Of a stretch of DNA of 64,000 bases, positions 5,307 through 55,343 are shown one piece after another. This DNA comes from Methanobacteriota archaeon (GTDB taxonomy: Archaea > Thermoplasmatota > E2 > DHVEG-1): positions 14,641 through 78,640 of the forward strand of contig JAZDGT010000038.1 of assembly GCA_043806635.1 (NCBI GenBank), in the 5' to 3' direction. Position 1 is the stretch's first letter; every line of letters begins with the position of its first letter. A model generated the notes under the pieces. It saw only the letters and a program-made list of their open reading frames with translations, was not told the origin of the DNA and did no database searches. Position numbers and translations under genes: made by a program.

Positions 5307-5318
5307 AGATACACATCC

Positions 5319-5346
5319 ATACACGTTCTAATACGTGTATACACGT
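5319..5346. promoter_or_regulatory. Overlapping perfect palindromes (candidate operator) in a divergent promoter region
   Basis: ATACACGT-tctaat-ACGTGTAT (5319-5340) overlaps the 14-nt perfect palindrome ACGTGTATACACGT (5333-5346). A TTTAAAAATA TATA-like element lies at 5361-5370. Confidence 0.5.
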
Positions 5347-5472
5347 ATACAGACAAGATATTTAAAAATACCGCTCACCAACCTCCCCAAACCTAAAAAA
5401 CGGTTATAAAACAAAACACGCTATCCGCTCCTAAAAAAGACATGATAAAAAAGTGACCGAGGACACAAACCT

Positions 5473-6654
5473 ATGAACAAACAAACCATCCTCAAAGGAC
5501 TCACCCGAAACATCATCATCGTCGGATTCGTCAGCCTCTTCACCGACCTCAGCAGCCAAATGGTCTTCCCCGTCATCCCCCTCTTCTTACTCTCACTCGG
5601 CGCAAGCGCATCAATAATCGGACTCGTCGAAGGAGCAGCAGAAACCACCGCATCACTCCTCAAAGTCTTCTCCGGATACTGGTCCGATAAAATCAAAAGA
5701 CGAAAACCATTCGTCTTCGCAGGATACGGACTCTCCACCCTCACCAAACCCCTGTTCGCCATCGCGTACATCTGGCCGTTTGTCCTCTTCATCCGCGTCC
5801 TAGAACGCATCGGCAAAGGAGTACGAGACGCACCACGAGACGCAATCATCGCAGAATCAGTCAACTACTCCATCCGCGGAAAAGCATACGGATTTCAACG
5901 AGCAATGGACGGCATCGGCTCCTTCTCCGGCGCCATACTCGCCGTGATACTCCTCCCCATCTACGCATATCGACACCTCTTCCTCATCGCGTTCCTCCCC
6001 GGGATACTCGCTGTCCTCATCATCCTCTTCATCAAAGAAAAACACACAAAACAAAAGGATAACAAACAACCAAGAATAAAACTCAGCGTTGGCCTCAGAA
6101 AACTCCCCAGAACCCTCCAACTCTTCATCCTCGTATCAACCATTTTCGCCCTCGGCAACTTCGGCTACGCATTCCTCATACTTAAAACAAAAAGCATAGG
6201 GTATTCTGACGTCACCGCACTCACCCTCTACGTCCTCTTTTATATCATATACACCCTGTTCACAATACCCGCAGGAATACTCTCCGATAAAATAGGGAGA
6301 AAACCCGTCCTCATCACCGGATACCTCATCTTCGCAGCCACCACCATTTGCCTCCTCTTCACCACACAACTCGTCCTCCTCATTCTCGTCTTCATACTCT
6401 ACGGAGTCTTCTTCGGGTTAATCGACGGAGTACAACGCGCCTTCGTCGTCGACCTAGCACCCACCGACCTCAAAGGAACCGCACTCGGAACATTCCACAC
6501 CATAACCGGGATAATCGCCTTACCCGCAGGATTCATCGCAGGATTCCTCTGGGATACCATCTCCCCACAAGCAACATTTCTCTATGCACTCAGCCTCACC
6601 CTCTGCTCCCTCGCCTTATTCACCGTAATCAAAAACCCAAAACCCACTTCCTAA
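5473..6654 (+). CDS. MFS transporter
   Basis: 393 aa with about 12 TM in two halves joined by a basic central loop. MFS-like GxxSDKxGRK(P) loop motifs in both halves. Confidence 0.85.
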   Translation: MNKQTILKGLTRNIIIVGFVSLFTDLSSQMVFPVIPLFLLSLGASASIIGLVEGAAETTASLLKVFSGYWSDKIKRRKPFVFAGYGLSTLTKPLFAIAYIWPFVLFIRVLERIGKGVRDAPRDAIIAESVNYSIRGKAYGFQRAMDGIGSFSGAILAVILLPIYAYRHLFLIAFLPGILAVLIILFIKEKHTKQKDNKQPRIKLSVGLRKLPRTLQLFILVSTIFALGNFGYAFLILKTKSIGYSDVTALTLYVLFYIIYTLFTIPAGILSDKIGRKPVLITGYLIFAATTICLLFTTQLVLLILVFILYGVFFGLIDGVQRAFVVDLAPTDLKGTALGTFHTITGIIALPAGFIAGFLWDTISPQATFLYALSLTLCSLALFTVIKNPKPTS

Positions 6655-9881: not shown

Positions 9882-10028
9882 GATAGAAACCTGCTTCGGT
9901 CTACCACGAAGTATACTGAGGATCCCCCAGGGGGGCAAACCATTCTGTTATATCTTTGAATCTCTATTTATAATTTAGCATAATTATAAAAAAACAGTTT
10001 TAGAAAAAGAGGATGTCCTCTGTTGTGT

Positions 10029-17268: not shown

Positions 17269-17271
17269 AGT

Positions 17272-41121: not shown

Positions 41122-43230
41122 TTAATATTCCGTCACCTTGAATTTCCCATGAGCTGGCTCATAGATCTGACCATTCCGTTTCAGTCGATCCAAGACTTCA
41201 TCGACTTTACTGGATTCTATCCCCTGGATCTCTGCTTCACTGATAATATCAGTTCGTGCTGCATTCCCCTCAGTGGACTCTTTACTGATCCGTTTAATGA
41301 TATCAATGATGTTCCGCATCCGCTCATGCTGACTGTGACTAATCCCTGTGGCGATGACATCGATGTCGAACCGCCCGGTCTCTCGATCCATTCCGACCCG
41401 ACGCAAGTACTGATCAATGATCGAGATCGCCCGTTTCGCATCCTCAACCGTCGCCTCCTCACTCAGACGAATGCGCGCGCTCGCCTCAGCCAGACGCACA
41501 AACGCCTCAAGCTGACGAGGAGTAAACGGCACCGAATCCTCCGAAGAGCTACGGAAATCAACATAGTACGTCCGCAGCATATCTAACGCGTCATCGCTGA
41601 TGACGGGGAACACATTCCTCTTTGAATATGCGATGTACTTTCGTAACAACTCAGGCTCAAACGTCGGCATCACATGTTTCATCAACTCCGCTCCTTGCTC
41701 AGCGGAAAATAACGAATGCTTTGATTTGATGATGTTCTGCTGGATCTCCCCCGCCTTATGAGACAGCAGGATATGCGTTGCCATAGCCGTATCCTTCTTC
41801 CGATTCGGTTTATCAAGAATAGAAAAAATAAGATCAAAACGAGACAATAGCGCCGGCGGCATATTGATCTGCTCGTGAATCGGCAGGAACTCATCAAAAC
41901 GACCCAGCTTCGGGTTCGCCGCCGCCAAAATACTACACCGGGATTTCAATGTCGCGTTAATACCAGCTTTCGCCACCGAGATCTCCTGCTGCTCCATCGC
42001 CTGATGCATACTACTCCGATCAGTCTCCTCCATCTTATCAATCTCATCAATACACGCAACTCCCATATCCGCCAGCACCAACGCACCCGCCTCAAGCGTC
42101 CACTGCCCCTCACCGAACTCATCACGTACCGCTGCAGCCGTAAGACCAGCCGCGGATGACGCCTTCCCTGATGCGTACACGCTCCGAGGCGCAAGCTTCG
42201 CTATATAGGATAACAGTTGTGATTTAGCCGTACCCGGATCACCCACCAACAAGGTATGGATATCACCACGAATATGCGTCCCATCAGGCATCTCCTTCGC
42301 TATCCCACCGAACAACTGCAACGCCAATGCCTCCTTCTCAATATCCATCCCAAAGATTGTCGGCGCGATACTCTCCTTAATCTTCTCATAAATCCCTGGG
42401 TCCTGGCTCATCGACAGAATCGTTTTTTCATCCTCCTCAGTCACCTCGACTTCCTCAAACGCCATCTCCTGACTCTCCACACTCACCGCATCAACCGTCT
42501 TATCAAACGACGTCAACCGGAACGTCCCCCGACGCCGCGCCATCGAATGCAGAATACCATTCACCACCACCCGATCACCAGGCGCAATCTCCCCCACCAG
42601 ATCATCCTCCAAATACACACTGATACGCTCCGGCTGCGCACCACCACGCAACCCCTCAGGGTTCTCCTGAACCTCCACCTTCTGCGAATCAATAAACGTG
42701 GACATATTCGTCGTCAACTTAAACGAAGAAACACGACCGCATCCTCCCTGATCCTCAGAACACTCAGAAGGCTCCTTCAAAATATCTTCATCCTGATCAA
42801 TATTAATCACCGCACCACACTTCTGACACTGAAACGCACCCACAAGAAGCTTCGGACGCACCTCAGTCCGCTTCTTCACCAACCCCTCCACCGCCGCAAG
42901 CTTCCCAATATGACTCGCACGAATCTTCCGAATCAACACCTTATGCGTCTCAGGAATATTCACTACACGGAAATGCAGCACCAGCTTCTGCTCCGCCGCC
43001 ACATCAATCGACTTCAACGCCTCATCCGCATTAAACAACGTTTTATACGGCTGATTCAACAACAACTCCGCCAGCTTCGGATCCGCCTTATCAATCACCC
43101 AATAATCCACATACAAACTCTTTTTCTCAGGGTACTCCAACGCAAGCGTCTCAATCTCCGACTTGCAGTTCTCCTCAAAAAAATTCCGCCACGAAGCAAC
43201 TAAATTATCATCTTTCAATAACCGCACCAT
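41122..43230 (-). CDS. mcm: MCM replicative helicase
   Basis: Zn finger CQKCG...C..GGCG, Walker A GDPGTAKS, Walker B CIDEIDKM, arginine finger SRFDLIF, C-terminal winged-helix-like tail. 702 aa. Confidence 0.95.
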   Translation of the reverse strand: MVRLLKDDNLVASWRNFFEENCKSEIETLALEYPEKKSLYVDYWVIDKADPKLAELLLNQPYKTLFNADEALKSIDVAAEQKLVLHFRVVNIPETHKVLIRKIRASHIGKLAAVEGLVKKRTEVRPKLLVGAFQCQKCGAVINIDQDEDILKEPSECSEDQGGCGRVSSFKLTTNMSTFIDSQKVEVQENPEGLRGGAQPERISVYLEDDLVGEIAPGDRVVVNGILHSMARRRGTFRLTSFDKTVDAVSVESQEMAFEEVEVTEEDEKTILSMSQDPGIYEKIKESIAPTIFGMDIEKEALALQLFGGIAKEMPDGTHIRGDIHTLLVGDPGTAKSQLLSYIAKLAPRSVYASGKASSAAGLTAAAVRDEFGEGQWTLEAGALVLADMGVACIDEIDKMEETDRSSMHQAMEQQEISVAKAGINATLKSRCSILAAANPKLGRFDEFLPIHEQINMPPALLSRFDLIFSILDKPNRKKDTAMATHILLSHKAGEIQQNIIKSKHSLFSAEQGAELMKHVMPTFEPELLRKYIAYSKRNVFPVISDDALDMLRTYYVDFRSSSEDSVPFTPRQLEAFVRLAEASARIRLSEEATVEDAKRAISIIDQYLRRVGMDRETGRFDIDVIATGISHSQHERMRNIIDIIKRISKESTEGNAARTDIISEAEIQGIESSKVDEVLDRLKRNGQIYEPAHGKFKVTEY

Positions 43231-43290
43231 GCAAACGACACTCCCCCAAAATAAATTGGTTATCCCACATCACCAGTCTCCTATAAAAAT

Positions 43291-43621
43291 GTTAGCGGGT
43301 GTAGAAACCCCTTAAGTGGACGCACGTGCCATCTACTGACTACCCATCTGCGTTCTCAACCCCGTTAACCCTCTGAGCATCAGTAGTCTATGGTAAGGTT
43401 GCTCACTTCCGTGCCTCGCCCGGTTCCCACAGCAAAGACGCGACACATACTCCTCCGAGTATGCATCATCGTCACCCCTAATCCCAAAGGACAAGGTTTC
43501 ATAGGTAACAAATGGATCAATAGATGATCGTTACATCGCCTCGCAGATTCGACCCCAGCATATCGGCGATTTCTGGTTACAGGGAACGCCTAGCTCCCCG
43601 GTCTATTCTACACCTATCGCC
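43291..43621 (-). ncRNA. Signal recognition particle RNA (archaeal 7S RNA)
   Basis: The reverse complement contains CCCTGTAACCAGAAATCGCCGATATGCTGGGG (5' domain) and GGGAACCGGGCGAGGCACGGAAGTGAGCAACC (helix 8 with GGAA tetraloop and AGCA). Both closely resemble archaeal SRP RNA as I recall it. The 5' GGTGTAGAA pairs with the 3' TTCTACACC. An ATTTTTAT T-run follows the 3' end. The ends are approximate. Confidence 0.8.
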
Positions 43622-43922: not shown

Positions 43923-44128
43923 CCCTTGAAATATACAGGAGCATAAACTAATAGATATAAGAAAGTTATGATTCGTTCCAACCCCTTCCTAAGAAGCATT
44001 GAAGACCGTGGTATTCGCCCTTTTCTGTATATCAGCATATATTGATGAACTATGCAAACAACATATTCTTTTTTTTTATTTTTTATCATCCGTCACTTTC
44101 TTATACCGGCTCATACATTAAATCAATC

Positions 44129-44431
44129 ATGCTCACATCCAACAGTATCACAAAGATGCTGACTCAACATCAAAAAGAAATCCAACAATACGGCGTAAAA
44201 CGAATCGGGTTATTCGGTTCATATACAACAAATAACCACCATCGGAAAAGCGATATCGATATCCTCGTGGAGTTTCAAAAAGGAAAAAAAACGTTTGATA
44301 ACTACATGGAGTTAAAATTTTTTTTAGAAAAACTATTCAACCGCCCCGTTGACCTGGTCGTAAAAGAAGCACTAAAACTGGAGTTGAAACCTTCGATTTT
44401 AAAGAGTGTACGCTATGCCACGGGATTTTAG
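44129..44431 (+). CDS. Minimal nucleotidyltransferase (MNT) antitoxin of an MNT/HEPN pair
   Basis: GLFGSY...SDIDILVEF nucleotidyltransferase motif. About 100 aa from MLTSNS. Overlaps the HEPN gene by 17 nt. Confidence 0.8.
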   Translation: MLTSNSITKMLTQHQKEIQQYGVKRIGLFGSYTTNNHHRKSDIDILVEFQKGKKTFDNYMELKFFLEKLFNRPVDLVVKEALKLELKPSILKSVRYATGF

Positions 44432-44755
44432 CATCTTTCTCAAAGACATCCAGAATGCTATTCACCGAATCGACAAATACACCAAAGGTCTTTCATATGA
44501 AGAATTCTGCGAAAACCAGTTAATACAAGATGGGGTAGTACGGAATCTTGAAATCATCGGAGAAGCAGTAAAACATATCCCCAAAGAAGCACAAAATACC
44601 CTCAGATTGAATGGAAAAAGATAGCAGGATTACGAGATATACTTATACATGCGTATTTTGGGGTTGATCGAGGTATCGTCTGGGATATCATTAAAACCAA
44701 AACCCCGGTACTGAAGAAACAAGTTAGATTGATTTTGAACCAGAGAAAAAAATAA
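44415..44755 (+). pseudogene. HEPN (DUF86) toxin gene with a 1-nt frameshift in an A-run (~44593-44596)
   Basis: The first frame reads MPRDFSIFLKDIQNAIHRIDKY...RNLEIIGEAVKHIPKEAQ and then stops at 44622-44624. A shifted frame continues [33 protein letters not shown]...RKK to a stop at 44753-44755. The R-x4-H RNase motif lies downstream of the shift. Confidence 0.75.
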
Positions 44756-44836
44756 GAGTGATCTTCCGCGAGAGATAATCAATACAGATACGATATACGG
44801 GTGCTGATTTTTAAAAAAGATTATTGATTTTTTATA

Positions 44837-44880
44837 GAACAAACCCTTAAATAACAGGAGCAATATTGATTACTCTGGGG
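44837..44880 (+). promoter_or_regulatory. Conserved promoter/leader copy 1 of the small-protein family
   Basis: GAACAAACCCTTAAATAACAGGAGCAATATTGATTACTCTGGGG recurs almost unchanged at 47498-47543. It contains a TTAAATAA TATA-like box. The match is out of frame relative to the two ATGs, so the conservation is at nucleotide level. Confidence 0.55.
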
Positions 44881-44889
44881 AAAAGAGTT

Positions 44890-45297
44890 ATGCGGAAGAT
44901 ACTTACAATAGGAAGTATCGTAGCGGTTATAATTCTTGTTCTTACAACGTATCCATCGATTGTTAGTGCGCAAACAATTAAATCTGAAAATACAAAACAA
45001 GAAAAATTACCCACTATTTTACATTTATTAAGAACGAAATCAACTGTGCAATTTGGAGAAGGAATTTCGTTAATTATTCTTGCAATAAAATTTGCAATTT
45101 TTTTTATTATCTCACTTTTTTATTCTACTTTGGGAGCTATTGATCTTTTTACTTCACTCACTAATGCAGGAGTTTTAGGCGCATTGTTTATTATTTTAGT
45201 GACTCCACCTTTATGGTTATTAATATTTGTAGAGGCATTTTTAAACGCTCTCTTCGGATTAGCTTTTTCAGAAGGAAGTGGTTATTACTATCCGTAG
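44890..45297 (+). CDS. Small secreted/membrane protein family, member 1 (135 aa, multi-TM tail)
   Basis: MRKILTIGSIVAVIILVLTTYPSIVSAQTIKSEN signal peptide, then about 3 hydrophobic helices. Confidence 0.65.
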   Translation: MRKILTIGSIVAVIILVLTTYPSIVSAQTIKSENTKQEKLPTILHLLRTKSTVQFGEGISLIILAIKFAIFFIISLFYSTLGAIDLFTSLTNAGVLGALFIILVTPPLWLLIFVEAFLNALFGLAFSEGSGYYYP

Positions 45298-45313
45298 AAA
45301 TTTATGGAGGAAT

Positions 45314-45529
45314 ATGAACAAGAAAATCTTCATCGGAACAACCCTTGCTGTCATCATCGTGTTTGCGAGATTCAGTACTTTAGCAAGTGCACAATCAACT
45401 TCATTAAAAGACTCTCTATTAACTAAAATCAAAGCGAAGATTGATTGGAAACCAGGAGATATTATAGGTTCTATTCTCGGATTGATTGGTCTTATATTTT
45501 TAATTCTATTTGGTTGGATGTTCCCATAA
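45314..45529 (+). CDS. Small secreted/membrane protein family, member 2 (71 aa)
   Basis: MNKKIFIGTTLAVIIVFARFSTLASAQSTS signal. K-rich linker IKAKIDWKPGD. C-terminal TM IIGSILGLIGLIFLILFGWMFP. GGAGG lies 5 nt upstream. Confidence 0.7.
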   Translation: MNKKIFIGTTLAVIIVFARFSTLASAQSTSLKDSLLTKIKAKIDWKPGDIIGSILGLIGLIFLILFGWMFP

Positions 45530-45544
45530 ATTAGAGGAGAAGAG

Positions 45545-45811
45545 ATGAAACGCAAGATAATAATCGGAAGTATCGGTGCAATCCTTATAGTTGTGTTAGC
45601 TTCGTTCAGTTCTGTAGCAAGTGCACAAACCATAAAATCAACTGTAGATGAAAAAACCTCTTTAATTCAGAATATTGTAAATAAAAAAGATAATCTGGCT
45701 TCTGGTGGGATTATTCAAATGATTTTAACATTAATCGGTGGATGTATTGGATTAATTTTGTTCTTTTGGTTTTTTTTAATTCTTTACTCGATTGGAGCTG
45801 TGGCGGTTTAA
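45545..45811 (+). CDS. Small secreted/membrane protein family, member 3 (88 aa)
   Basis: MKRKIIIGSIGAILIVVLASFSSVASAQTIKST signal. Linker NKKDNLASGG. C-terminal hydrophobic tail. Confidence 0.7.
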   Translation: MKRKIIIGSIGAILIVVLASFSSVASAQTIKSTVDEKTSLIQNIVNKKDNLASGGIIQMILTLIGGCIGLILFFWFFLILYSIGAVAV

Positions 45812-45824
45812 TAATTGATATAGT

Positions 45825-45860
45825 ATGAAAAGAAAGATAGTAACCGGAAGCATTCTCTAA
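45825..45860 (+). pseudogene. Truncated remnant of a family member (11 codons)
   Basis: ATGAAAAGAAAGATAGTAACCGGAAGCATTCTCTAA = MKRKIVTGSIL-stop. It mimics the start of member 3. Confidence 0.5.
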
Positions 45861-46031
45861 TACCCAGACCAGAACATTATGTTTGAATGTAAAAAGTGTT
45901 AGGTGTAGGCCGTAAGCCTCTTTATCACTCCAGTAAAATAATAAATTTCGATAGTTTAGAAGACGTAATTTTTTTTGTATAGCTAAGTTTTATTAAGCAC
46001 TGTCTGATGACAACATAGCAAGGAGAAAAGA

Positions 46032-46409
46032 ATGGAATTTCAAGTACCGAATGATATTAAAAAATTGAAAGAAAATCTAAAAAAAGGAACTCTCACAGTA
46101 TATGGAATCTCGTCTGTTTTTTGTGGCATTCTCGCATTGTCATTTATTTGGATATCACCTTTTTTTAGTATGTTTCTACCTTTGCCTGAAGGTGTATCTA
46201 TGTATCATACACCGTCTTTAGGTTTTGTTGCCATTGTTCGGTATTTAACCCCAAATTTTGCAGCAGCATCACTCGCTCTTGTTTTTGGAATGCTTGCCTA
46301 TTGGAGAAAAAAACCAAGAGATCATTATGGGAAAATTGGATTTATCCTTGGACTATTTGTAATAATCCTTGGTATATTTCAGTATATAATCGCTTCTTCC
46401 GTTTCTTAA
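46032..46409 (+). CDS. Small polytopic membrane protein (about 4 TM), hypothetical
   Basis: 125 aa. Unrelated to the signal-peptide family but embedded in the array. Confidence 0.5.
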   Translation: MEFQVPNDIKKLKENLKKGTLTVYGISSVFCGILALSFIWISPFFSMFLPLPEGVSMYHTPSLGFVAIVRYLTPNFAAASLALVFGMLAYWRKKPRDHYGKIGFILGLFVIILGIFQYIIASSVS

Positions 46410-46484
46410 AAGCGTCATTCATTAGCACAAAACATGATGTTCTAAAAACATGAAATAATAGAAATGTTTTGATGTAAGAAGCAA

Positions 46485-46622
46485 TTATTTCTTCTTGATT
46501 GTTTTGTAATGATCTATTAATCTCTGAATGACCTCAGAATAAGTTTCTCCTTTTTCCGCAATTTCAAATAGTTGGTCTTTAACATGATCCATTACTCGAA
46601 TTGTCGGCATCTTTGAATCCAT
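46485..46622 (-). CDS. 45-aa ribbon-helix-helix/VapB-like putative antitoxin (below the ORF-track length cutoff)
   Basis: My translation is MDSKMPTIRVMDHVKDQLFEIAEKGETYSEVIQRLIDHYKTIKKK. The pattern TIrV.d.vk..L......GEtySdvI.rLi resembles the archaeal small putative-antitoxin family as I recall it. Confidence 0.45.
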   Translation of the reverse strand: MDSKMPTIRVMDHVKDQLFEIAEKGETYSEVIQRLIDHYKTIKKK

Positions 46623-46662
46623 AGGATTTTTAGAAGGCAACATTTTCTATTAGAGAGATAAT

Positions 46663-46740
46663 ATGAATAAGAAAATCCTCATCGGAACTATCCTTACGAT
46701 AATAATTTTGTTATGTTTGATTTTTCAGCCTCGCCCATAA
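46663..46740 (+). pseudogene. Truncated remnant of a family member (25 codons)
   Basis: MNKKILIGTILTIIILLCLIFQPRP-stop. It has the family n- and h-regions but terminates before the cleavage site. Confidence 0.5.
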
Positions 46741-46832
46741 GATTCTTTTATAACAGTGTCGAACTAAAAATCTAATTATTGTTACAAAGGGTTAAATATC
46801 ACTTGTTATTTTGTATTATGTAGGGAGGATTC

Positions 46833-47129
46833 ATGAAAGGAAGAATACTTCTCATCGGAAGTGTATTAATTACATCATATTTGTTGATGATTTTGCCATC
46901 TGTTTCTGCAATTGAACATAACACAGTTATAGAAAAAAATAAATTCGAGCTTCTTGAAGAATTGAAGGATAAAATAAAAGATGGTGGTCTAAGCTTCGAT
47001 AATGAACTAATTAGAATTCTACTGATATTTTCAGTATTTTATGTATTATATAGAATTACAATGTATATAATTGGAATTCTTATTGGTAATACACCACCAT
47101 CAACACCAAGTAGACCATCACCAGCATAA
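46833..47129 (+). CDS. Small secreted/membrane protein family, member 4 (98 aa)
   Basis: MKGRILLIGSVLITSYLLMILPSVSAIEHN signal. Linker LKDKIKDGGLS. TM region. Pro/Ser/Thr tail GNTPPSTPSRPSPA. GGGAGG upstream. Confidence 0.65.
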   Translation: MKGRILLIGSVLITSYLLMILPSVSAIEHNTVIEKNKFELLEELKDKIKDGGLSFDNELIRILLIFSVFYVLYRITMYIIGILIGNTPPSTPSRPSPA

Positions 47130-47214
47130 TTTCATAATTTAAGAAGGATAAATGTGTTAGACTGGTATCCATGGCAACCAGGCGATTAATTTTACATCCT
47201 GGATATATTTGAGC

Positions 47215-47454
47215 ATGAACAAAAAGATAATCATCGGAATCACCCTTGCCGTCATCATCGTGTTAGCGGGATTCAGTTCGGTAGCAAGTGCTCAAACAAT
47301 AAAATCAAATACGTTTTTTCAACAGATAAAAGATAAAATTGAAAATAAAGATTGGTATCCAGGAGAAATTATATTGAATGAGATTATGGCAGGTATTATT
47401 GTTTATCTTGCATTACTTTTTATGATGATATTTAAATTTCCATTGGTATTTTAA
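47215..47454 (+). CDS. Small secreted/membrane protein family, member 5 (79 aa)
   Basis: MNKKIIIGITLAVIIVLAGFSSVASAQTIKSNT signal. Linker IKDKIENKDWYPGE. C-terminal TM. Confidence 0.7.
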   Translation: MNKKIIIGITLAVIIVLAGFSSVASAQTIKSNTFFQQIKDKIENKDWYPGEIILNEIMAGIIVYLALLFMMIFKFPLVF

Positions 47455-47497
47455 TTAATATTATAATCTTTTTTTTCTTCGAAACTCTTCAAAATTG

Positions 47498-47543
47498 GAA
47501 CAAACCCTTAAATAAAAGGAGTAACATTTGATTACTATTGGGA
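47498..47543 (+). promoter_or_regulatory. Conserved promoter/leader copy 2 of the small-protein family
   Basis: GAACAAACCCTTAAATAAAAGGAGTAACATTTGATTACTATTGGG. Compare 44837-44880. Confidence 0.55.
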
Positions 47544-47550
47544 AGGTTTT

Positions 47551-47784
47551 ATGCGGAAGATACTTGCAGTAGGAAGTATCCTACTTGTTTCCATCCTAAT
47601 TCTTACTTCATATTCGTCTGTAGTTGAGGCAAGAAATATTCCGGATAATCGAAACCAAATAAATGATATTAGAGATTTATTAAGAAATTTAATTGATTTT
47701 TTAGAGTATCTATTTGGTATAATTCCTCTATTTATTTTTGGTTTATTATGGATTCTTTCTGGTTTTCGCGGTCCTATAGTTTGA
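47551..47784 (+). CDS. Small secreted/membrane protein family, member 6 (77 aa)
   Basis: MRKILAVGSILLVSILILTSYSSVVEARNIPDN signal, then an amphipathic linker and a C-terminal TM. Confidence 0.65.
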   Translation: MRKILAVGSILLVSILILTSYSSVVEARNIPDNRNQINDIRDLLRNLIDFLEYLFGIIPLFIFGLLWILSGFRGPIV

Positions 47785-47806
47785 TAAAAAAGAAAATGTT
47801 GGGAAT

Positions 47807-48070
47807 ATGAACAAGAAAATCCTCATCGGAAGCATCGTAGCACTTCTGCTTATCTTTCTTACGTGTACCTCTGTTGTAAATGCTCGAACGATAAAAATAA
47901 ACGATCTCAAACAACAACAGAAGATAATACCAGATAATCTCGCTGGGGGAACCATCCTACGAGCATTGTTTAACCTACTCCTTGGATTCCTCGCAGGCGT
48001 CGGGTTCATCACCACCGCTATTATCCTCTATCTCTGGTTAATTATACTCTCCGCATTACATAGTTATTGA
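47807..48070 (+). CDS. Small secreted/membrane protein family, member 7 (87 aa)
   Basis: MNKKILIGSIVALLLIFLTCTSVVNARTIKIND signal. Linker PDNLAGG. Hydrophobic tail. Confidence 0.7.
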   Translation: MNKKILIGSIVALLLIFLTCTSVVNARTIKINDLKQQQKIIPDNLAGGTILRALFNLLLGFLAGVGFITTAIILYLWLIILSALHSY

Positions 48071-48082
48071 GAAAAGAAAACC

Positions 48083-48352
48083 ATGCACAAAAAAAACGTT
48101 ACCATATCCATACTCATAACTGCAATACTACTTATCATAACAATGAACTCAGTAGTCTATGCAAAATGCATAAACAAGGATACGGTAATACACATCATCA
48201 CGACCCTACAGAATAAAAAAGATGAAGCAGGGAGCATGTTTCGATTCTTCTTCTTCCTCCTCGGTTTCATATTAGGGGTAGGATACATAGTTAAAATAAT
48301 CATGTTCATCCTCGAAATCTTTCTCCACATCCTCGATGGATATTCATACTAA
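48083..48352 (+). CDS. Small secreted/membrane protein family, member 8 (89 aa)
   Basis: MHKKNVTISILITAILLIITMNSVVYAKCINKD signal. Linker NKKDEAGS. Hydrophobic tail. Confidence 0.6.
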   Translation: MHKKNVTISILITAILLIITMNSVVYAKCINKDTVIHIITTLQNKKDEAGSMFRFFFFLLGFILGVGYIVKIIMFILEIFLHILDGYSY

Positions 48353-48366
48353 AACAAAATACGTAA

Positions 48367-51300
48367 TCAAAAAAAATCAGAAAGCTTCGTCACCTTCACC
48401 CGATCACTCATAAACAACGAATCAATAGACTTCTCAACAAGCGCGATCCGCTGACACGCATACTCCGGGAGATGATACTTCAACGCGATCTCCTTCGAAA
48501 TATTCAAATACTTTTTCACCGACATCTCATGCACCGTAAGCGTAAGCCTCCCCTCGCACTGCGAACACACCCCCTGCAGAGGAATACGACGAAACGTCAC
48601 ATTACACGTTGGACAACGAACCGACTGCTTACTAAACGCACGAAGATTCCCCAAGATATCCGGCAGGAAATGCCGCTCAATCACCTTATACGCCACATCC
48701 GCCTCATCCACCGGCCGAAGCTTCGCTGCAAGCGTCAACTGCGTATTCATCTTCTCCATCATCGTCTTCAACGTCTTATACAACGACTCCTTCGGACCCG
48801 CAGACACATCAAACGTATCATGCGTAAACCCGAACTGCTCAAACTGAAGCTCAGTCCCAATCCGAGAGGACACTAAACCCATCACCGACTCAAGGTTCTT
48901 CGGATGCTCATGCTTCAACGACGCCTCATACAACGCCAACGGATACCGAGACAACGTATCAATATTATGCGCCTCCTTATCCACCTCCGCAGGATCAAGA
49001 CGTGTCGTCAGAATCAACGGCAGATCCATACGACCACCCCGCTTATCAGGAATATATGCATGCGAAAAATTCAACAACGCATCCATAAGCAACATCTGAC
49101 CATCTTCATCTCCATCGCAATTTTTTGAGAGAAGAGCATCATTAATAAGGAAATTATGTAGATCCTCCACTTCAACATCATACACGTACCCTGAATCAAC
49201 ATACACCGGGTGAATCTCCTTCACCGCATCAAGAACATAATCACCAACCCGTCCCACACGAGGTTTCCGCTCCTTCATCAAAACGGATTCCAATGCCTGC
49301 TGTTTCCTTCGAAGAGCAAACCCTATCTGTTGCGCGAACACGCGCGCAAACGAGGAACGAATATCCAACGTAAACAATTCAAAAACTCGGGTTTGATGTT
49401 TCTTCTCATAAAAGGTTTTTGCTAATCCTCCCGCTGGCTTATGCTCCTCACGAATCCGATAAAATATCCCAAAACGAAGCAACTGAAACCCGATATCCTG
49501 AAGGAGATCACGATCAACAGAACAACACGTAACATGAAGCCGGTTTTTCTCCACTGACCCATCACCAGCAAAATACGCCCGCAACAACCCACGAATCTTA
49601 TACAACGGCAGAGCTGTGAATCGGCAAGGAACACGTTTCGTCTTCGCATTCTTCCCAACACAAAGAATCCGACTAAAGAAATCATGAATCAACCTACTAG
49701 ACATCGCTATCCCATGATCATCGACGTAGGCATGAACATGAAAAACCTCATGGATACAATCAACAATATCCGCGCGGATCTCTTTCTCCGTCACAGCAAA
49801 CCCGACCTGATAACAATTCTTAGTGGTGTACCTGGTATGACCCTCAGCAAGATAATACCCAAGCAACCGCATGAATGCCTCATTCACCGGGATGAACCGT
49901 GGTATCCTCGTATCGTCTCGCTTCACACCCAAGAAACAATCCCGCGGAATAGACTCACGATTCTGACCACACAAATCAAGGACTTGGAAAAGAATAGTGA
50001 GAGGGATACTATCACGATACAGATAATCGGAGAACGTTTTCTTATTCAACTGTAATTTCTGTGATATCGCTTGCAATCCACCTGCTTGTTTGATACATTG
50101 TTGAACCAGATCATGAACACCTCGCACAACGAGATCATCATACAGACCAGTCTGGAAAAACTCAGAGAGAAGATCGATCTCCACCACATCATTCTCAGGG
50201 ACAGCGATGTTCTGAGACACCAAGAGTTTATCGTCCTTAGTCACCTGGATTATTTTCTTTGTCACCGCAGCATCCTCTGACCAGACCACCATGCGATGCG
50301 CAGGAGATGATACAAACGATCTCCCCGACTGCAACGTCACATGGACAAGATGATGTGGTGCCCGTGTTTTCATGACAGAGGTTATCTTTTTAATCTCAGT
50401 CTTCCCTGTGAGCGGATTAAAAGCGAACGTGCGTAAGTTACTGACTTGTTTCGCGGTTGTTCCGAAATCATCAACAACTCTCTCTGATGATGATGTACGA
50501 TTATAAATTTCTTGGAGTGGTAACATAGCAGGTTTCCCTGAGTCAAGGACATGAATCCGGGTCTCCGGTGAAAGACAATTTCTTCGTTTCGCTGCATGAT
50601 AAAACGGGTGTGAGAAGCATACCTGTGCATTGGTAAAACCAATAATTCTTCCAAGAGCACCTGCGGAGGTATGCGGCGCAAGTCCAACTACGAGATGACC
50701 AGTGAGATCCTCCAGTGTTTTAATTTTATAGAACGCATCCATTTTGTAGTATTTCATGAGGAGGTCATCGATGAAGCGGCTTATTTGGACGAAATATTCG
50801 GCGCATGATTTCGCAACAATCACGTCTTGAACCCTGAGTTCGCAGATCTGATCATCATGCTCGAGCTCGTTTCCTAGATAATCGTTCGTGTACCCTAATT
50901 CTTTGATTCTTTTCAGTGATACTCCAAGCTCATGGGGTTTGAAGTGGGTGAGCGGTGCATCCGTCATGTCGAAACGGCTGGTTCCGTCTTTGAAGACGTA
51001 CACGTTGTGTTTCGCTCTGAGGAGTCCTTTCTCGAGGGGTTCTGGTGTTTTGTTTTTGGAGATGGTGCCGATGACTCCTTTGATCGTCTCTGGGAGATCC
51101 CGTTCTTTTAATGCTTGTTTCGCTCGTTGAAGCTCCTCTGTAAGATTTATGGTATGTGTTTTTATTCGTCCGTTTGACGTCAGGGTGTGTGTTCCGCAGG
51201 CGCAGGTGACTTTGTAGGTTCTTTTCCCGCATGTTGGGCAGTGTCGGTCTCCGGCTTCGATTTCGATCTCGGTTTTTTCTGCTGCTGTCCTGAAGAGTCG

Positions 51301-53265
51301 TTGGTTTCCCCCATAGTTGCCAAGGGGGAAGAGGACGTGTGGTGGTGGTCGCATTTTTCGTGCTGCTGCTTTCTCTGGTCGTCCCATCCTGGCTCCGATG
51401 CGGAATGGTGCGCGGGCGTTGATGGGTATGCCTGCGAGTTGTGAGACGAGCGTTACTGGGTTTTCCTCGTTATTCGTAGTGAGGAGTGGGTATCGTGATG
51501 TTTCAATGATTGTGTTGTCGGTGATGTCGAGGCCGCTGCAGCGGATGAGCGGGTACGCGTATCGATCTATGAGGAGGGTTTCTTCTCGTTGGGTGTGGAG
51601 TGCTCCGAGTTCGATGAGGATGTCTTTGATGTGTTGGTTGAATGGTAACGATAGTTTCGGTTGGTTTGTTTCATCGTTGGTTATGGTTCCTCGTTCTTTG
51701 ATATATTGTGCGAGGGTGACGATGTCGGTTCGTTGGAGGTCGTGCCAGAACAGGTTATAGTGGGGGTGAAGGGGTATCTGATATTTTTCTGAGAGGAGGA
51801 ACGCATCCTTCTGTGTTGGTTCTATTAGGGTGATTTCTCTCTGGAATGTGTCGTTTATGGTTTTTTGTGTTTGTTCATCTGCTTGGACGATATCGTTCAT
51901 CGTATAGGTTTTCGGGAGGCAGGATACTGCTTTTTGGAGGTCCTGTATCCACCATTCATACACGTAACTTGAATCCGGAAGGAGGGCGTTGTTCTCCATG
52001 AACTCACCGTAGGGGATGAGTATTTCTCCGAGGTCGATGATGCGTTTTACTTCGCCTTTGAGGTCTTGTATGTTGTTGATTTGGACGAGATCATTATTCT
52101 CCAGTAATACAATTGGTCCTTCGATTTGGTCGCAGGGCGTCCCGATGGTTCCTTTCCCTGGTCGTTCAATCTTCATCTGGGTTCCGACGGTGATGAAACT
52201 ATCAACGATGTACATAGTTGCGGGGTTGATCGCGGTGGATGCTAGCCCGCCGGTGCGTGCGCGTCCGTAGCGGAGTCTGAAGCCTCCTTTTTTTGAGGGG
52301 TGGCTGAGGACTGGTCTTCCTGCGATGACTTCGCCGATGTATTTGGATGAGGGTGGGATTTGGGGGATGTCGCCGATTTGTTGTTCTTGTGTGGTGCCTT
52401 TGTTGACGAAGGTTTCGAGGAACTCCCAGCCTTTCAATTTGAGTTTTTTGATGTGTTTATGGATTTTTGGTGCTTTGAGACAGAGTCCTTCAGCAATAAC
52501 AAGGCAGGCGCCGCCGCGGAGGCGGTTGGTTCCGGCACGGGGTAGGTCGCGGTACCCGGTGACTTCTTCATCCTCGGTTCCTTCTCCGTTTATGCAGATT
52601 GGGCAGTTCTTCACCACGAGTTCGATTTCATCAACCGTGGGGAGGTACTGGAGATGCTGTACTCGTTTGTAGAGGGGGATTTCTTCTTTGTATCGTTCGA
52701 TCTCACCGAACGTGGGTTGGTAGCCGCCGATGTTGAGTTCCCTGCGAACAATATCCGCGATGAGGACACTCATCGCTTGACCAGTTCCTCCCGCGCTTCG
52801 AATCGGTCCTGAGAAAAACAAATCAACGTATGATGAACCGTCTTTGTTCCTGCCGAGTTTCACATCAGCGATGCCTTCGAGTGGTGCGACAAGTACTCCC
52901 TCGGTTAAGATGGCAAGGCCGGTTCGTATGGCTTGATCCAGTGCTTGTTCCACCTTAGAAAACTGATACGTTGTTCCTTTCGCGATTTCTCGTGCGATCT
53001 CGATGGAGACGAGTTCTCGGTTCCCTAGTTTTTTTGTTGCGGCACGGATCTTCGGTGCAATATCTTTTGGTCCAACAAGTTGTTCTACACGTGCTGCGAG
53101 ATCAAGAGCCTGCGGTATCTCAACAGTGCATTCAGGGTCTAACCCTTTCTTCCTCGCTAGTTCTGCAACCGCATAACAGGCATCGATTTCTTGTTGTAAC
53201 CGGGTGAAGTACGCCTGCATCATTGGGCTCGCTGCGATAGAATTGGATATACCCCCGTCAACCAT
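48367..53265 (-). CDS. polC: DNA polymerase II (PolD) large subunit DP2, containing an intein
   Basis: Collinear with archaeal DP2. The exteins join as ...HPFYHAAKRRN + CDGDEDGQMLLMDALLNFS. Zn modules CPTCGKRTYKVTCACG and CPTCN...CSQCEG. Confidence 0.95.
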   Translation of the reverse strand: MVDGGISNSIAASPMMQAYFTRLQQEIDACYAVAELARKKGLDPECTVEIPQALDLAARVEQLVGPKDIAPKIRAATKKLGNRELVSIEIAREIAKGTTYQFSKVEQALDQAIRTGLAILTEGVLVAPLEGIADVKLGRNKDGSSYVDLFFSGPIRSAGGTGQAMSVLIADIVRRELNIGGYQPTFGEIERYKEEIPLYKRVQHLQYLPTVDEIELVVKNCPICINGEGTEDEEVTGYRDLPRAGTNRLRGGACLVIAEGLCLKAPKIHKHIKKLKLKGWEFLETFVNKGTTQEQQIGDIPQIPPSSKYIGEVIAGRPVLSHPSKKGGFRLRYGRARTGGLASTAINPATMYIVDSFITVGTQMKIERPGKGTIGTPCDQIEGPIVLLENNDLVQINNIQDLKGEVKRIIDLGEILIPYGEFMENNALLPDSSYVYEWWIQDLQKAVSCLPKTYTMNDIVQADEQTQKTINDTFQREITLIEPTQKDAFLLSEKYQIPLHPHYNLFWHDLQRTDIVTLAQYIKERGTITNDETNQPKLSLPFNQHIKDILIELGALHTQREETLLIDRYAYPLIRCSGLDITDNTIIETSRYPLLTTNNEENPVTLVSQLAGIPINARAPFRIGARMGRPEKAAARKMRPPPHVLFPLGNYGGNQRLFRTAAEKTEIEIEAGDRHCPTCGKRTYKVTCACGTHTLTSNGRIKTHTINLTEELQRAKQALKERDLPETIKGVIGTISKNKTPEPLEKGLLRAKHNVYVFKDGTSRFDMTDAPLTHFKPHELGVSLKRIKELGYTNDYLGNELEHDDQICELRVQDVIVAKSCAEYFVQISRFIDDLLMKYYKMDAFYKIKTLEDLTGHLVVGLAPHTSAGALGRIIGFTNAQVCFSHPFYHAAKRRNCLSPETRIHVLDSGKPAMLPLQEIYNRTSSSERVVDDFGTTAKQVSNLRTFAFNPLTGKTEIKKITSVMKTRAPHHLVHVTLQSGRSFVSSPAHRMVVWSEDAAVTKKIIQVTKDDKLLVSQNIAVPENDVVEIDLLSEFFQTGLYDDLVVRGVHDLVQQCIKQAGGLQAISQKLQLNKKTFSDYLYRDSIPLTILFQVLDLCGQNRESIPRDCFLGVKRDDTRIPRFIPVNEAFMRLLGYYLAEGHTRYTTKNCYQVGFAVTEKEIRADIVDCIHEVFHVHAYVDDHGIAMSSRLIHDFFSRILCVGKNAKTKRVPCRFTALPLYKIRGLLRAYFAGDGSVEKNRLHVTCCSVDRDLLQDIGFQLLRFGIFYRIREEHKPAGGLAKTFYEKKHQTRVFELFTLDIRSSFARVFAQQIGFALRRKQQALESVLMKERKPRVGRVGDYVLDAVKEIHPVYVDSGYVYDVEVEDLHNFLINDALLSKNCDGDEDGQMLLMDALLNFSHAYIPDKRGGRMDLPLILTTRLDPAEVDKEAHNIDTLSRYPLALYEASLKHEHPKNLESVMGLVSSRIGTELQFEQFGFTHDTFDVSAGPKESLYKTLKTMMEKMNTQLTLAAKLRPVDEADVAYKVIERHFLPDILGNLRAFSKQSVRCPTCNVTFRRIPLQGVCSQCEGRLTLTVHEMSVKKYLNISKEIALKYHLPEYACQRIALVEKSIDSLFMSDRVKVTKLSDFF
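49120..50577 (-). mobile_element. Intein with a LAGLIDADG homing endonuclease in PolD DP2
   Basis: Starts CLSPETRIHVLDSG (Cys1 codon 50577-50575). SSPAHR (block B). LLGYYLAEGHT and LLRAYFAGDGSV. Ends ...NDALLSKN (Asn codon 49122-49120), followed by the +1 Cys of CDGDED. 1458 nt = 486 codons. Confidence 0.9.
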
Positions 53266-53354: not shown

Positions 53355-55058
53355 TTAAGTGATTGGTTGGCTGAAATCCATCGTGGTCGCGTTCCCTGTT
53401 TTCAGATCAACGATGGGGAGTTTAGCAGAGTCTGGAATAAAATTCAGCATCTTCTGATACGTGGTCTGCGCCTGCCAGCTTGACGCATTAATCATCGTGA
53501 CACCGCGGTAATCAGCGAGCGCTGCGAGATGAACATGCCCAGTGACGAAGATATCGGGGACGCGATCAATAATCATGTAGTCCATATGCTCCGGGGCAAG
53601 CGGCGTATACCCGCCGTACGTGGGTGCGAGATGACGTTTCCTCAACATCAATTTCATGATCTCGAGGGGTTCATTGTATTTGAGCTGCGGGATGTTCGTC
53701 GCGAAATCCAGCAGACTTTGCCCATGATACGAGAGGACTTCCACCCCATGAACTGAGAAATAGCAGGGGTTCGCCGCGAAGACGACGTCGTTCCCGGAGA
53801 ACAACTGTTGTATTTCTTTCTCAAACGCGGGTTGCGGCTCCGCGGGTCGGACTGCGTCATGGTTCCCCGGCTGTATAAGAATAGTGATATAGTCCGGGAT
53901 GAGTTGGAACTGTTGCGCGAGTGCCTCGTATTGGCGGTAGATGTCGCGGATCGAGAGTTCCTTTTCCTGGTTCGGGTAGATGCCGATCCCGTCGACGAGA
54001 TCACCAGGGACGATCAGGTATTTTATTTTCCCTGCCACATCTTTTTGTCGCGTATTCCCCAGGTTCCCATTAATCCATTTCAGAAAACTATGCCATTGGT
54101 CCTCAAGAAACATTTTACTACCGATGTGGATGTCGGAGAGGAATGCGGCGTGGACTGGTACTTCTGCTTTCTGTTTATTATGCTGGATACTGATATCAGG
54201 GAAGACGATGTTTTGGATGATGAGCAGGTCACCGTTTTTACTGAGTTTACTAGTGACACCGATGATTTCATCGAGGACGACTTCGGAGGCGAGCTGTAAA
54301 GCATCCGGGTTGGTTTTCAACGCGATCAATGGTGCAGTACCGGTTTCATCTTCGAGTTCTATGAGGCGATGACCATGTGAGGTCGTCCGAACGTTTTTCA
54401 CGATGCCGATGAGTTGGACATCGTTTGTACCACTTTTTTTGATCCGGTTAATGGGGAGGACGTTTGCGAGTTCTCTGCGCTGGGTCTGAAGTATTTTCCG
54501 GATGACGGTGTATCGGTATTTGAAGAGTTTCGCGAAATCCTGCGTGGTTCCTTCGCAGGTGCTTTTCCCGCTGACATCTTTGATGATGCGCAGCTCAGCA
54601 TGATATTCTTTGGCGAGTGGTTTCCATCCTTTTATTTTTTTGATTTCGACGGGGTGCAGATCTGGTTCTTGTGTACCGTTGGTTTCCGAGAGTTGATCAT
54701 CTTTATCAGGATCATCGTCTTCTTCTTCGTCGTCTTCGTCTGTTTTCGGACGTAGATTTCCACTGTAGAGTTTGGTGAGGAGGATGCGTTGGATCTGTTT
54801 TTCTTCTTCGGTTTGTTGTCGTGTCTTTTCTGTTTCCTCAGAGGGTTTCTCTGATATGAGTGGTGGTGTTTCTTGGGGTTTTGTGTGTTCTTCGATGGTC
54901 AGTATATGGTCCATGGTGAGGATGAGCGGGTATTCCTTCAGGTTTTTGAGGAGGGTTTCCGCGAATTCTCTGGGTTTCTCCTTGTTTTGGATATAGGTCA
55001 CAGCATCTGGTTGAATAAAGGTGCCATGTTCTGAGAATAAATGGAGTACTGATTTCAT
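53355..55058 (-). CDS. polB: DNA polymerase II (PolD) small subunit DP1 (exonuclease)
   Basis: C-terminal calcineurin-like phosphoesterase motifs (FLSDIHIGS, VPGDLVDG, PGNHD, GHVH). OB-fold region. Acidic linker DEDDEEEDDDPDKDD. ATG 55058 (MKSVLHLF) preferred over TTG 55088. Confidence 0.9.
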   Translation of the reverse strand: MKSVLHLFSEHGTFIQPDAVTYIQNKEKPREFAETLLKNLKEYPLILTMDHILTIEEHTKPQETPPLISEKPSEETEKTRQQTEEEKQIQRILLTKLYSGNLRPKTDEDDEEEDDDPDKDDQLSETNGTQEPDLHPVEIKKIKGWKPLAKEYHAELRIIKDVSGKSTCEGTTQDFAKLFKYRYTVIRKILQTQRRELANVLPINRIKKSGTNDVQLIGIVKNVRTTSHGHRLIELEDETGTAPLIALKTNPDALQLASEVVLDEIIGVTSKLSKNGDLLIIQNIVFPDISIQHNKQKAEVPVHAAFLSDIHIGSKMFLEDQWHSFLKWINGNLGNTRQKDVAGKIKYLIVPGDLVDGIGIYPNQEKELSIRDIYRQYEALAQQFQLIPDYITILIQPGNHDAVRPAEPQPAFEKEIQQLFSGNDVVFAANPCYFSVHGVEVLSYHGQSLLDFATNIPQLKYNEPLEIMKLMLRKRHLAPTYGGYTPLAPEHMDYMIIDRVPDIFVTGHVHLAALADYRGVTMINASSWQAQTTYQKMLNFIPDSAKLPIVDLKTGNATTMDFSQPIT

Positions 55059-55343
55059 GCCCTCGAACCCACAAAAACTGCTTGCCAAGATTGAGTATAC
55101 GTGGTGATGTTTTTAGTATTATGGTTCTTGAACAAGAAAAAAATACTTACGCACGATAGGTATTATATATACTTTTCGATAAAAATCAGTTTGTGACGTA
55201 GATGAACACACCATACACACAAATCCGCCATGTACACACGCTTCACATGTCAACAAGTATCATTTTTTCCGAAAAAGATATAAAACAGGAAAAACTAACA
55301 TTAAAATAGAAAGACAAAAAAGACGAAAACATAAGGAATAACC

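Follow-up and report, generated by a model that had tools for sequence, protein, structure and literature searches.

Opposite wobble polarities meet within the DNA polymerase D large-subunit gene of a Thermoplasmatota archaeon

In the archaeon studied here, which GTDB places in the Thermoplasmatota (E2; DHVEG-1), the gene for the large subunit (DP2) of DNA polymerase D (PolD) is interrupted by an intein and lies in a cluster that also holds the gene for the small subunit (DP1), a conserved membrane open reading frame (ORF), the signal recognition particle (SRP) RNA gene and the gene for the MCM helicase. The DNA that was analysed, called the window below, is a stretch of 64,000 nucleotides from contig JAZDGT010000038.1 (NCBI GenBank assembly GCA_043806635.1, positions 14,641 to 78,640), and coordinates are those of the window unless a relative is named. 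Within DP2, the third bases of the codons pass from the amino class (A, C) in most of the N-terminal extein to the keto class (G, T) in the C-terminal extein. This switch is a property of the DNA and not only of the codons, it recurs in related lineages, and it does not depend on the intein. An earlier note on the same DNA had recognised the change around the intein, and had taken it to suggest that the two extein halves have different mutational or recombinational histories.

The DP2 gene and its wobble switch

The DP2 ORF is unbroken over its full length and reaches 100% coverage in comparisons with orthologs; it is identical in sequence to protein P0001 of the NCBI metagenome-assembled genome (MAG), and its domains match Pfam families PF03833, PF24844 and PF24846 with E-values of 1e-114 to 1e-140. 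Wobble polarity was measured as GT3, the fraction of codons ending in G or T, and was profiled along DP2 in 50-codon windows. The profile has its extremes at codons 276-350 (0.06) and 1401-1500 (0.96), and codon positions 1 and 2 hold within about 0.3-0.64 G/T over the same windows. Codons 151-750 of the N-extein differ in GT3 from the C-extein with a Fisher p of 3e-91, the crossover zone between them coincides with the first half of the catalytic domain, and the best single change-point, once the intein is removed in silico, falls 5 codons past the splice junction. Measured by codon position, the wobble composition is thus not uniform, as the earlier note had claimed, and the counts that it gave are reproduced: the third base is G or T in 35 of the last 37 codons (KYHLPEY..DFF), exactly as stated, and A or C in 80 of the 86 codons of the stretch KAPKIHKH to AINPA, at 52219-52476 (given in the note as about 52225-52480). 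The transition zone that it had placed at 50300-50900 corresponds to codons 789-989 or so, and it was correctly described as comprising the end of the N-extein and the N-terminus of the intein. A cis element within the crossover zone was sought through synonymous-site conservation in 31 orthologs, which yielded no peak.

The insert that separates the exteins carries in frame an Intein_splicing domain (PF14890) and a LAGLIDADG_3 domain (PF14528). Its junctions, ..AAKRRN/CLSPE.. and ..LLSKN/CDGDEDG (the slash marks the junction), display Cys1, a terminal Asn and a +1 Cys, and in intein-free homologs KRRNCDGDEDG runs uninterrupted. GT3 is 0.62 in the N-part of the intein and 0.74 in its C-part. 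Both in the window and in a relative designated L008 (other relatives are numbered likewise), the intein is less skewed than the adjoining C-extein, and its ranking of relatives by similarity is unlike those of the exteins; these two features fit a mobile, younger insert. The coordinates of the gene, of its parts and of the other features considered are collected in Table 1.

Table 1. Position, strand and wobble polarity of the features of the window; GT3 refers to the coding sense.
Feature	Codons or residues	Window position	Strand	Remarks
PolD large subunit (DP2) gene	1632 codons + stop	48367..53265	-	straddles two polarity domains
DP2 domains (Pfam)	PolC_DP2_N 19-288; central 302-699; cat 725-905 + remainder past intein
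Core A/C-wobble tract of N-extein	151-750	51016..52815	-	GT3 0.208, minimum 0.06
Crossover zone, last 146 codons of N-extein	751-896	50578..51015	-	GT3 0.418, GC3 (G+C fraction at third positions) locally lower
LAGLIDADG intein, 486 aa	897-1382	49120..50577	-	GT3 0.702
C-extein, G/T-wobble tract	1383-1632 + stop	48367..49119	-	GT3 0.928
PolD small subunit (DP1) gene		53355..55112	-	moderately A/C-coded, coding GT3 about 0.24-0.60
AT-rich unskewed island, about 4.4 kb		43923..48366		between DP2 and conserved small ORF
Conserved membrane ORF, about 91-96 aa		43632..43922	-	no Pfam match; wobble G/T 0.82
Archaeal SRP (7S) RNA gene		43299..43613	-	Rfam RF01857, 207 bits; centre of G/T-rich domain
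MCM helicase gene		41122..43269	-	G/T polarity as in DP2 C-extein
SF1-type helicase gene (AAA_11/AAA_12)		7473..9947	-	no intein; plus-strand wobble G/T 0.5, then 1.0, then 0.64
Polarity flip at divergent promoter		4756..6654		YbjQ-like gene (-) plus-strand G/T about 0.9; MFS gene (+) about 0.1

Conservation of the switch among relatives

The relatives of the DP2 protein are found in sediment Thermoplasmatota MAGs, at 55-73% amino acid identity. Codons of the orthologs were projected onto the DP2 codons of the window, and change-points are expressed in extein coordinates. The same A/C-to-G/T switch, of the same sign, is present in 14 related Thermoplasmatota lineages, and its presence there, in genes that include intein-free ones, indicates that it is not an event in the history of this lineage. 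An A/C-coded N-terminal part of about 750 codons, in which the core A/C tract is kept, precedes a G/T-coded C-terminus in L005, L006, L008, L009, L016, L026, L030, L032 and L082, and the switch is weaker in L018, L019 and L020; the intein is lacking from the switching genes of L018, L019, L020, L030 and L032. In the carrier lineages the change-points lie between extein codons 752 and 901. They fall no more than 5 codons from the intein site in the window and in L009, where the intein is present, and in L018 and L020, which are intein-free, and in these four cases the coincidence of boundary and homing site is real; steps at the homing site are also found in L026 and L032, and other lineages switch 45-150 codons upstream.

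The flip is scattered over five or more subclades of an extein distance tree, where it is interleaved with unskewed sisters (within one sister pair, the C-minus-N difference in GT3 is +0.46 for L009 and +0.03 for L048), and is independent of the presence of the intein. Comparison of the window with L001 shows saturation at fourfold sites, and the lineages that carry the switch span GC3 values from 0.14 to 0.51; together these results indicate that the polarity is actively maintained and not merely inherited. No polarity step accompanies the inteins found at the same site of DP2 in Archaeoglobi and Halobacteria. Local wobble domains, of which the DP2 switch is one instance, occur in a subset of the relatives, recovered in independent studies (L009, L023, L008, L082, L019, L005 and others); Archaeoglobi and many of the other relatives lack them.

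The most extreme polarity was encountered in two GC-rich relatives from sample Ga0209777, L155 (2807-10312) and L157 (6049-8212), with overdispersion of 13 and 10; the fraction of C at third positions reaches 0.80, and A exceeds G there even at a GC3 of 0.86. These loci hold a divergent operon pair, both arms of which are A/C-coded, and an amidohydrolase gene with a polarity opposite to that of the window ortholog. In L009, two genes downstream of the EF-2 region (15186-18187, minus strand), whose place in the gene order hints that they may encode RNA polymerase A''/A', display another intragenic flip: a gene of 376 aa is strongly A/C-coded, and the next one passes from a G/T-coded 5' end to an A/C-coded 3' end.

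Polarity domains across the window

DP2 is one of many places at which the polarity changes. The whole window is composed of near-pure G/T or A/C wobble tracts amid neutral, AT-richer stretches; extreme tracts of either polarity occur on both strands, one class falling to 0-6% or rising to 94-100% of wobble bases, and the sign changes at least 10 times in 64 kb. The variance among 40-codon bins over the whole window is 6.5 times binomial, as against about 1 in Archaeoglobi and many relatives, and the autocorrelation of the wobble class, with a length of about 1-2 kb, reaches zero at about 1.8 kb. Flips and gradients are present in many window genes that have no intein. The MFS gene at 5449-6654 has a plus-strand wobble G/T of 0.04-0.18, and the amidohydrolase operon that starts at 18655 has values of 0.7-0.9. 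Housekeeping genes may be neutral, A/C-coded or G/T-coded, without functional pattern. Inserted or mobile DNA is less skewed, as seen in the DP2 intein, in the 4.4 kb island and in the region of a second intein, which is neutral, shows no flip and has an AT-rich wobble composition (GC3 0.16-0.42).

Several of these loci merit description in their own right. The second LAGLIDADG intein lies in a gene for a NifU/IscU-like Fe-S scaffold (14622-16082, minus strand; NifU_N, LAGLIDADG_3 and a weak Intein_splicing match), which adjoins a cysteine desulfurase gene (16099-17271). The promoter between the YbjQ-like and MFS genes is the sharpest polarity reversal of the window, from about 0.9 to about 0.1 in some 300 bp, and both of its genes are A/C-coded. 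In the SF1-type helicase gene, wobble G/T stays at 0-6% across several hundred codons; a metagenome scan with peptides of this helicase retrieved no relatives, and the protein may be lineage-specific or fast-evolving. Two adjacent giant ORFs on the minus strand (25115-33064 and 33201-40982; 2650 and 2594 aa) contain NosD/beta-helix, Laminin_G_3, DUF2341, PKD and PQQ beta-propeller domains, and probably encode surface proteins. Polarity drifts slowly within each of them, from about 0.7 to about 0.25, with a jump at the gene boundary, and the similar GC3 profiles of their 3' ends suggest paralogy.

Genes around DP2

The order DP1, DP2, membrane ORF, SRP RNA gene and MCM is kept in the relatives, and the SRP RNA gene and the small membrane ORF are retained between DP2 and MCM throughout the clade (L001-L082). 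At the centre of the G/T domain lies the SRP RNA gene, and the sign of this domain is the one that exposure of the non-template strand would give; the sign of the A/C domain is opposite to that expected from DP2's own transcription. Coding GT3 of MCM is about 0.9-0.98 at the 5' end and falls to about 0.56 at the 3' end (plus-strand values 0.02-0.44), and MCM is likewise G/T-coded in L005, L008, L009 and L019. To either side of the DP2 switch, the skew fades within about 3-5 kb. The composition of the SRP RNA stretch is constant in all relatives. The spacer between DP2 and MCM had been considered as unskewed neutral DNA, which would have provided an argument against mutation pressure; this was dropped, since the spacer resists skew because the SRP RNA gene and the conserved ORF fill it. 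When RNA genes were examined as domain anchors, only three tRNA genes were found in skewed loci.

DP1 lies directly upstream of DP2 on the same strand, and in L005 its polarity is opposite to that of the window DP1. At the DP1/DP2 junction of L005, L009, L026, L006 and L008, the A/C domain begins abruptly at the start codon of DP2. Where the window has the 4.4 kb island, relatives have just 60-90 bp. The island contains a nucleotidyltransferase/HepT-like pair of the MNT-HEPN type (44042-44624) and, on the plus strand at 44866-48352, about eight tandem paralogous ORFs of 77-143 aa, which have in common a signal-peptide-like N-terminus, ..KKIIIGSI.AVIIV.LA.FSSVASAQTIKS...

A property of the DNA strand

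The polarity is not limited to wobble bases. Leucine codons track it at their first position: TTA accounts for 6% of the A/C-ending Leu codons in A/C tracts and for 38% in neutral bins, and in G/T tracts TTG is the most frequent Leu codon. Scored against 12 unskewed orthologs, the first two codon positions differ in a directional manner. In the A/C tract, 424 T>C changes stand against 104 C>T; A>G exceeds G>A both in the C-extein (146 vs 78) and in the intein (240 vs 76); and the ratio of A>T to T>A is 131:31 in the G/T tract and 141:263 in the A/C tract, amino/keto transversions thus sharing the polarity of their tract. Over all skewed loci, regression on position 3 gives a slope of 0.17 at position 1 and one of 0.085 at position 2. 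Intergenic DNA follows the wobble polarity of its flanks (r = 0.70, n = 106, slope 0.42), and no 3-base periodicity was detected in the intergenic segments. Plus-strand polarity is also correlated across junctions of opposite-strand genes, convergent (r = 0.52, p = 0.002) as well as divergent (rho = 0.43); once orthologs are collapsed, about 7 junction types keep the sign of the DNA strand and 2 follow the coding sense. The proposal that polarity follows coding sense, exemplified by five adjacent genes on both strands that are all A/C-coded, is mostly contradicted by this junction test, but two junctions do conform to the proposal.

In every genome, transitions at twofold sites are asymmetric by a factor of roughly 10 or more: from A/C tracts to G/T tracts, G/(A+G) of NNR codons rises from 0.07-0.10 to 0.58-0.78, and T/(C+T) of NNY codons from 0.17-0.51 to 0.84-0.93. 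At fourfold sites, the keto or amino class is kept and the base follows genomic GC, with G taking the place of T and C that of A; AT-rich relatives use A at 0.65 or T at 0.70, and the window uses C at 0.52 with A at 0.37, or G at 0.53 with T at 0.33. In the window bins, Arg codons move from AGR to CGN in A/C and G/T tracts alike. GC3 of the window is about 0.1 higher in skewed than in neutral tracts, an enrichment that a pure C-to-T deamination model does not predict, and the larger component of change in this genome is A to G (equivalently T to C).

Comparison with known asymmetries

Spirochaetes such as Borrelia burgdorferi favour codons that end in G or T in the genes of the leading strand, and codons that end in A or C in those of the lagging strand. 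The GC and TA skew of bacterial replication resembles the pattern described here in that it runs along the keto/amino axis, is best seen at third positions, shifts amino acid usage and non-coding DNA, and is attributed to deamination of the more exposed strand (PMC3269012, PMC3269016). It differs in having one switch each at origin and terminus, in being uniform over hundreds of kb and in its modest amplitude, whereas the window displays domains of a few kb and intragenic switches, in an archaeon. Vertebrate mitochondrial DNA, whose heavy strand is single-stranded during strand-displacement replication, offers a match in strength, in C-to-T and A-to-G change on one strand that is clearest at fourfold sites, and in gradients (PMC3269012, PMC4182315). 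It has, however, a single genome-wide polarity and a known mode of replication, whereas polarity in the window alternates locally in a cellular chromosome. We know of no replication mechanism that gives such local alternation in a cellular chromosome. In mammals, skew 'N-domains' of megabase scale and very low amplitude are bounded by upward jumps at replication initiation zones. Like the window, they have alternating skew, sign changes without inversion and gradual slopes between switches; unlike them, the window has kilobase-scale domains with near-saturated wobble sites.

Transcription-associated mutational asymmetry (Beletskii & Bhagwat 1996, as cited in PMC12999951) and the GC skew of R-loops are also local and kilobase-scale, with a non-template strand enriched in G and T (PMC3787257, PMC6442632), and the G/T domain of the window, centred on the highly transcribed SRP RNA gene, has the sign expected of them. 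GC skew itself favours R-loops, which provides a way for polarity to sustain itself (PMC3787257, PMC6442632). However, about half of the skewed coding sequence of the window has a sign opposite to its own transcription, and the polarity usually runs on across oppositely transcribed genes and changes inside genes. The sign does not follow gene orientation as transcription would have it: both signs occur on both strands, and approximately 7 of 9 junction types keep the strand sign. Intein homing with co-conversion would resemble the DP2 locus in having a boundary at or just upstream of the LAGLIDADG site and a patchy intein among sisters, but it predicts homogenised flanks and discordant phylogeny near the site, not opposite strand composition; no discordance is seen here, and other inteins come without a flip. 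In full-text searches of the literature, neither kilobase-scale keto/amino wobble domains nor intragenic polarity switches in archaea came to light, and the phenomenon seems to be a variant of strand compositional asymmetry that is apparently undescribed.

Origin of the polarity domains

We give about even odds (a probability of roughly 0.5) to the reading that a deamination-type substitution pressure, local and strand-asymmetric, acts on the skewed loci with a strength like that seen in mitochondrial DNA, and that the intein and the AT-rich islands are younger and less equilibrated insertions. DP2 would then span the conserved boundary between two kilobase-scale domains of opposite strand polarity, at which the intein is a passenger, and such domains would occur generally in the window genome and in some of the related sediment Thermoplasmatota. 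In each domain, one strand would be driven from amino to keto bases, mainly by A-to-G and C-to-T transitions on the driven strand, the direction of deamination; class-preserving G:C to T:A transversions, in either direction, would then choose the keto or amino base according to the GC pressure of the genome, and purifying selection on the protein would confine near-saturation to wobble sites, the effect being weaker at the first two codon positions and in non-coding DNA under constraint. The keto-enriched strand would be the template strand over DP2 codons of about 50-800, and the coding strand from about the position of the catalytic site and the intein as far as MCM, the small ORF and the SRP RNA gene included. 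The intein, the 4.4 kb island and other AT-rich stretches of low skew would be younger DNA that has not equilibrated. From these patterns we infer a mutational cause, which could be persistent local exposure of one strand or its asymmetric repair. The agent that we prefer, though at low odds, is long-lived single-strandedness of the R-loop or D-loop type, possibly reinforced as G-rich transcripts favour R-loops. More tentatively than the substitution pressure itself, and at less than even odds, we propose that a subset of slow-growing sediment Thermoplasmatota possesses an undescribed landscape of kilobase-scale amino-to-keto domains, with asymmetry of mitochondrial strength and with boundaries that may lie inside essential genes, at the same codon across species.

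A number of observations weigh against a mutational substitution pressure. The intergenic amplitude is only about 0.4 of that at wobble sites, and in the independent amidohydrolase loci the correlations are weak and non-significant, both for intergenic DNA (r = 0.33, n = 20) and for opposite-strand genes (r = 0.15, n = 19). Polarity at the amidohydrolase locus is also poorly conserved (mean GT3 0.55), with only L084, at 88% amino acid identity, matching the window. Some domain edges are gene starts, as at the DP1/DP2 junction, where the value passes from 72 to 28 in L005 and from 53 to 18 in L009, and at the divergent promoters 5217/5449 of the window and 5561/6049 of L155 both genes are A/C-coded, which a pure strand-region model would not give. 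Close comparisons are few: the trio L002, L015 and L004 is barely skewed, and the sole close relative of the window, L084, covers 1.4 kb and has no outgroup. The GC-independent pattern of keto and amino classes is equally expected from direct selection on the composition of the strand or the mRNA. We know of no archaeal process by which 2-5 kb of one strand would become exposed at fixed, conserved positions, and strand-specific mutation and repair were found to be weak in archaea in a survey (PMC12999951).

Selection on transcript or codon composition, which we hold to be unlikely, would have mRNA segments be either A/C-ending (Watson-Crick pairing, G34/U34 tRNAs, unstructured) or G/U-ending (wobble or C34, structure-prone), as two codon 'dialects' that tune translation or mRNA fate, with DP2 changing dialect at its catalytic domain. 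It is favoured by the peak of the effect at wobble sites, by domain edges at gene starts in several species, by divergent operons with both arms A/C-coded in the window and in L155, by the conservation of the DP2 pattern in protein coordinates with constant sign, and by the keeping of the keto/amino class whatever the GC content. Under such selection, however, neighbours would speak opposite dialects, since polarity mostly runs on across opposite-strand genes; non-coding DNA is polarised as well, without periodicity, and replacement sites and Leu first positions shift too; both polarities are equally extreme, though A/C-rich and G/U-rich RNAs differ greatly; amidohydrolase orthologs have opposite polarity in different lineages; and housekeeping genes lack any functional pattern. 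Translational selection may nevertheless contribute, as the two divergent promoters at which polarity follows coding sense suggest. A switch in replication direction, improbable in our view, would place an initiation zone (or, were archaeal polarity reversed, a termination zone) in or next to DP2 within the DP1-DP2-SRP RNA-MCM cluster, and the remaining mosaic would then be made of rearranged segments in the course of re-equilibration. In Pyrococcus, oriC lies beside cdc6-DP1-DP2, and replication genes cluster here too (DP1, DP2 and MCM, with a RadB-like gene in the window). The DP2-sense strand goes from amino to keto, which is the sign of a bacterial origin, the switch is conserved along with synteny and always has the same sign, and recently inserted DNA is unskewed. 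Against this stand the decay of the skew within about 3-5 kb both ways, where persistence along replichores would be expected, the repeated sign changes in 64 kb, and other intragenic gradients that inversions could not reach; indeed, the earlier note's statement that a simple inversion cannot produce an intragenic flip holds. The switch also lies inside a conserved coding region in which no synonymous constraint marks origin recognition box (ORB) or DNA unwinding elements, although no explicit ORB-motif search was made, and no Orc1/Cdc6 is among the annotated genes of the window. Taken together, the lack of a synonymous peak, the lack of Orc1/Cdc6 in the window and the decay over 3-5 kb make an origin inside DP2 unlikely.

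Recurrent LAGLIDADG breaks at KRRN/CDGDED, followed by resection and outward repair synthesis, could leave opposite biases on the two flanks, with intein-free alleles keeping the footprint of past homing cycles, and the position of the change-points in the window, L009, L018 and L020, the steps at the site in L026 and L032, and an intein so patchy between sister lineages as to imply frequent gain and loss are all in keeping with this; misincorporation of the G.T type on outward nascent strands would, by inference, also match the sign. We regard it as distinctly improbable, given that other lineages switch 45-150 codons upstream, that the N-side skew is weakest beside the site and strongest 0.6-2 kb away, that same-site inteins of Archaeoglobi and Halobacteria come without a step, that the second window intein lies in neutral DNA, and that domains elsewhere mostly come without an intein. 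Damage to resected single strands at double-strand breaks was considered separately and rejected, having the wrong sign and the wrong distance profile. Separate recombinational origins of the extein halves, as conversion tracts ending at the intein or as a split gene rejoined there, had been put forward by the earlier note; in favour of this reading, an inversion cannot give the flip, and the extein-only change-point of the window falls at the splice junction. This is very improbable: the exteins share their nearest relatives, with P0073 and P0059 at the top of both lists and identity ranks that are correlated (Spearman 0.57, p ~1.6e-11), an outcome that by the note's own reasoning refutes separate histories. 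Neither conversion tracts nor a rejoined split gene is supported: the switch occurs in 14 lineages, intein-free genes included, at saturated synonymous divergence; other inteins have no flip; and flips are common in intein-free genes of the window, the phenomenon being genome-wide. Of the different histories proposed for the two halves, opposite mutational (compositional) regimes stand, and separate recombinational ones do not. Finally, as the window derives from a MAG, an assembly chimera or sequencing artefact could have joined two populations inside DP2; the ORF is nevertheless intact and full-length and the transition gradual, and recurrence of the same pattern in MAGs and contigs that many studies and assemblers produced independently of one another makes the chance of this negligible.

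Implications

Strand asymmetry serves to locate origins and to infer mechanisms of mutation. Archaea have been described as having little strand-specific mutation or repair (PMC12999951), and the window shows the opposite: a local asymmetry of the strength seen in mitochondrial DNA, arranged in few-kb domains that disregard the limits of genes so frequently that even an essential polymerase gene is divided between two of them. Polarity domains of this kind distort the statistics of codon usage, GC skew, horizontal transfer and binning, bias the amino acid composition of conserved proteins, and can mimic recombination breakpoints, as in DP2. If the polarity is mutational, it would suggest that uncultivated sediment archaea have a source of long-lived single-stranded DNA, or of asymmetric repair, that has gone unrecognised and that could be tested from metagenomic reads alone. 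If the kilobase-scale landscape holds true, these organisms would possess either a locus-anchored, strand-specific DNA transaction that is new to archaea or a polarity that propagates itself, for instance through R-loops.

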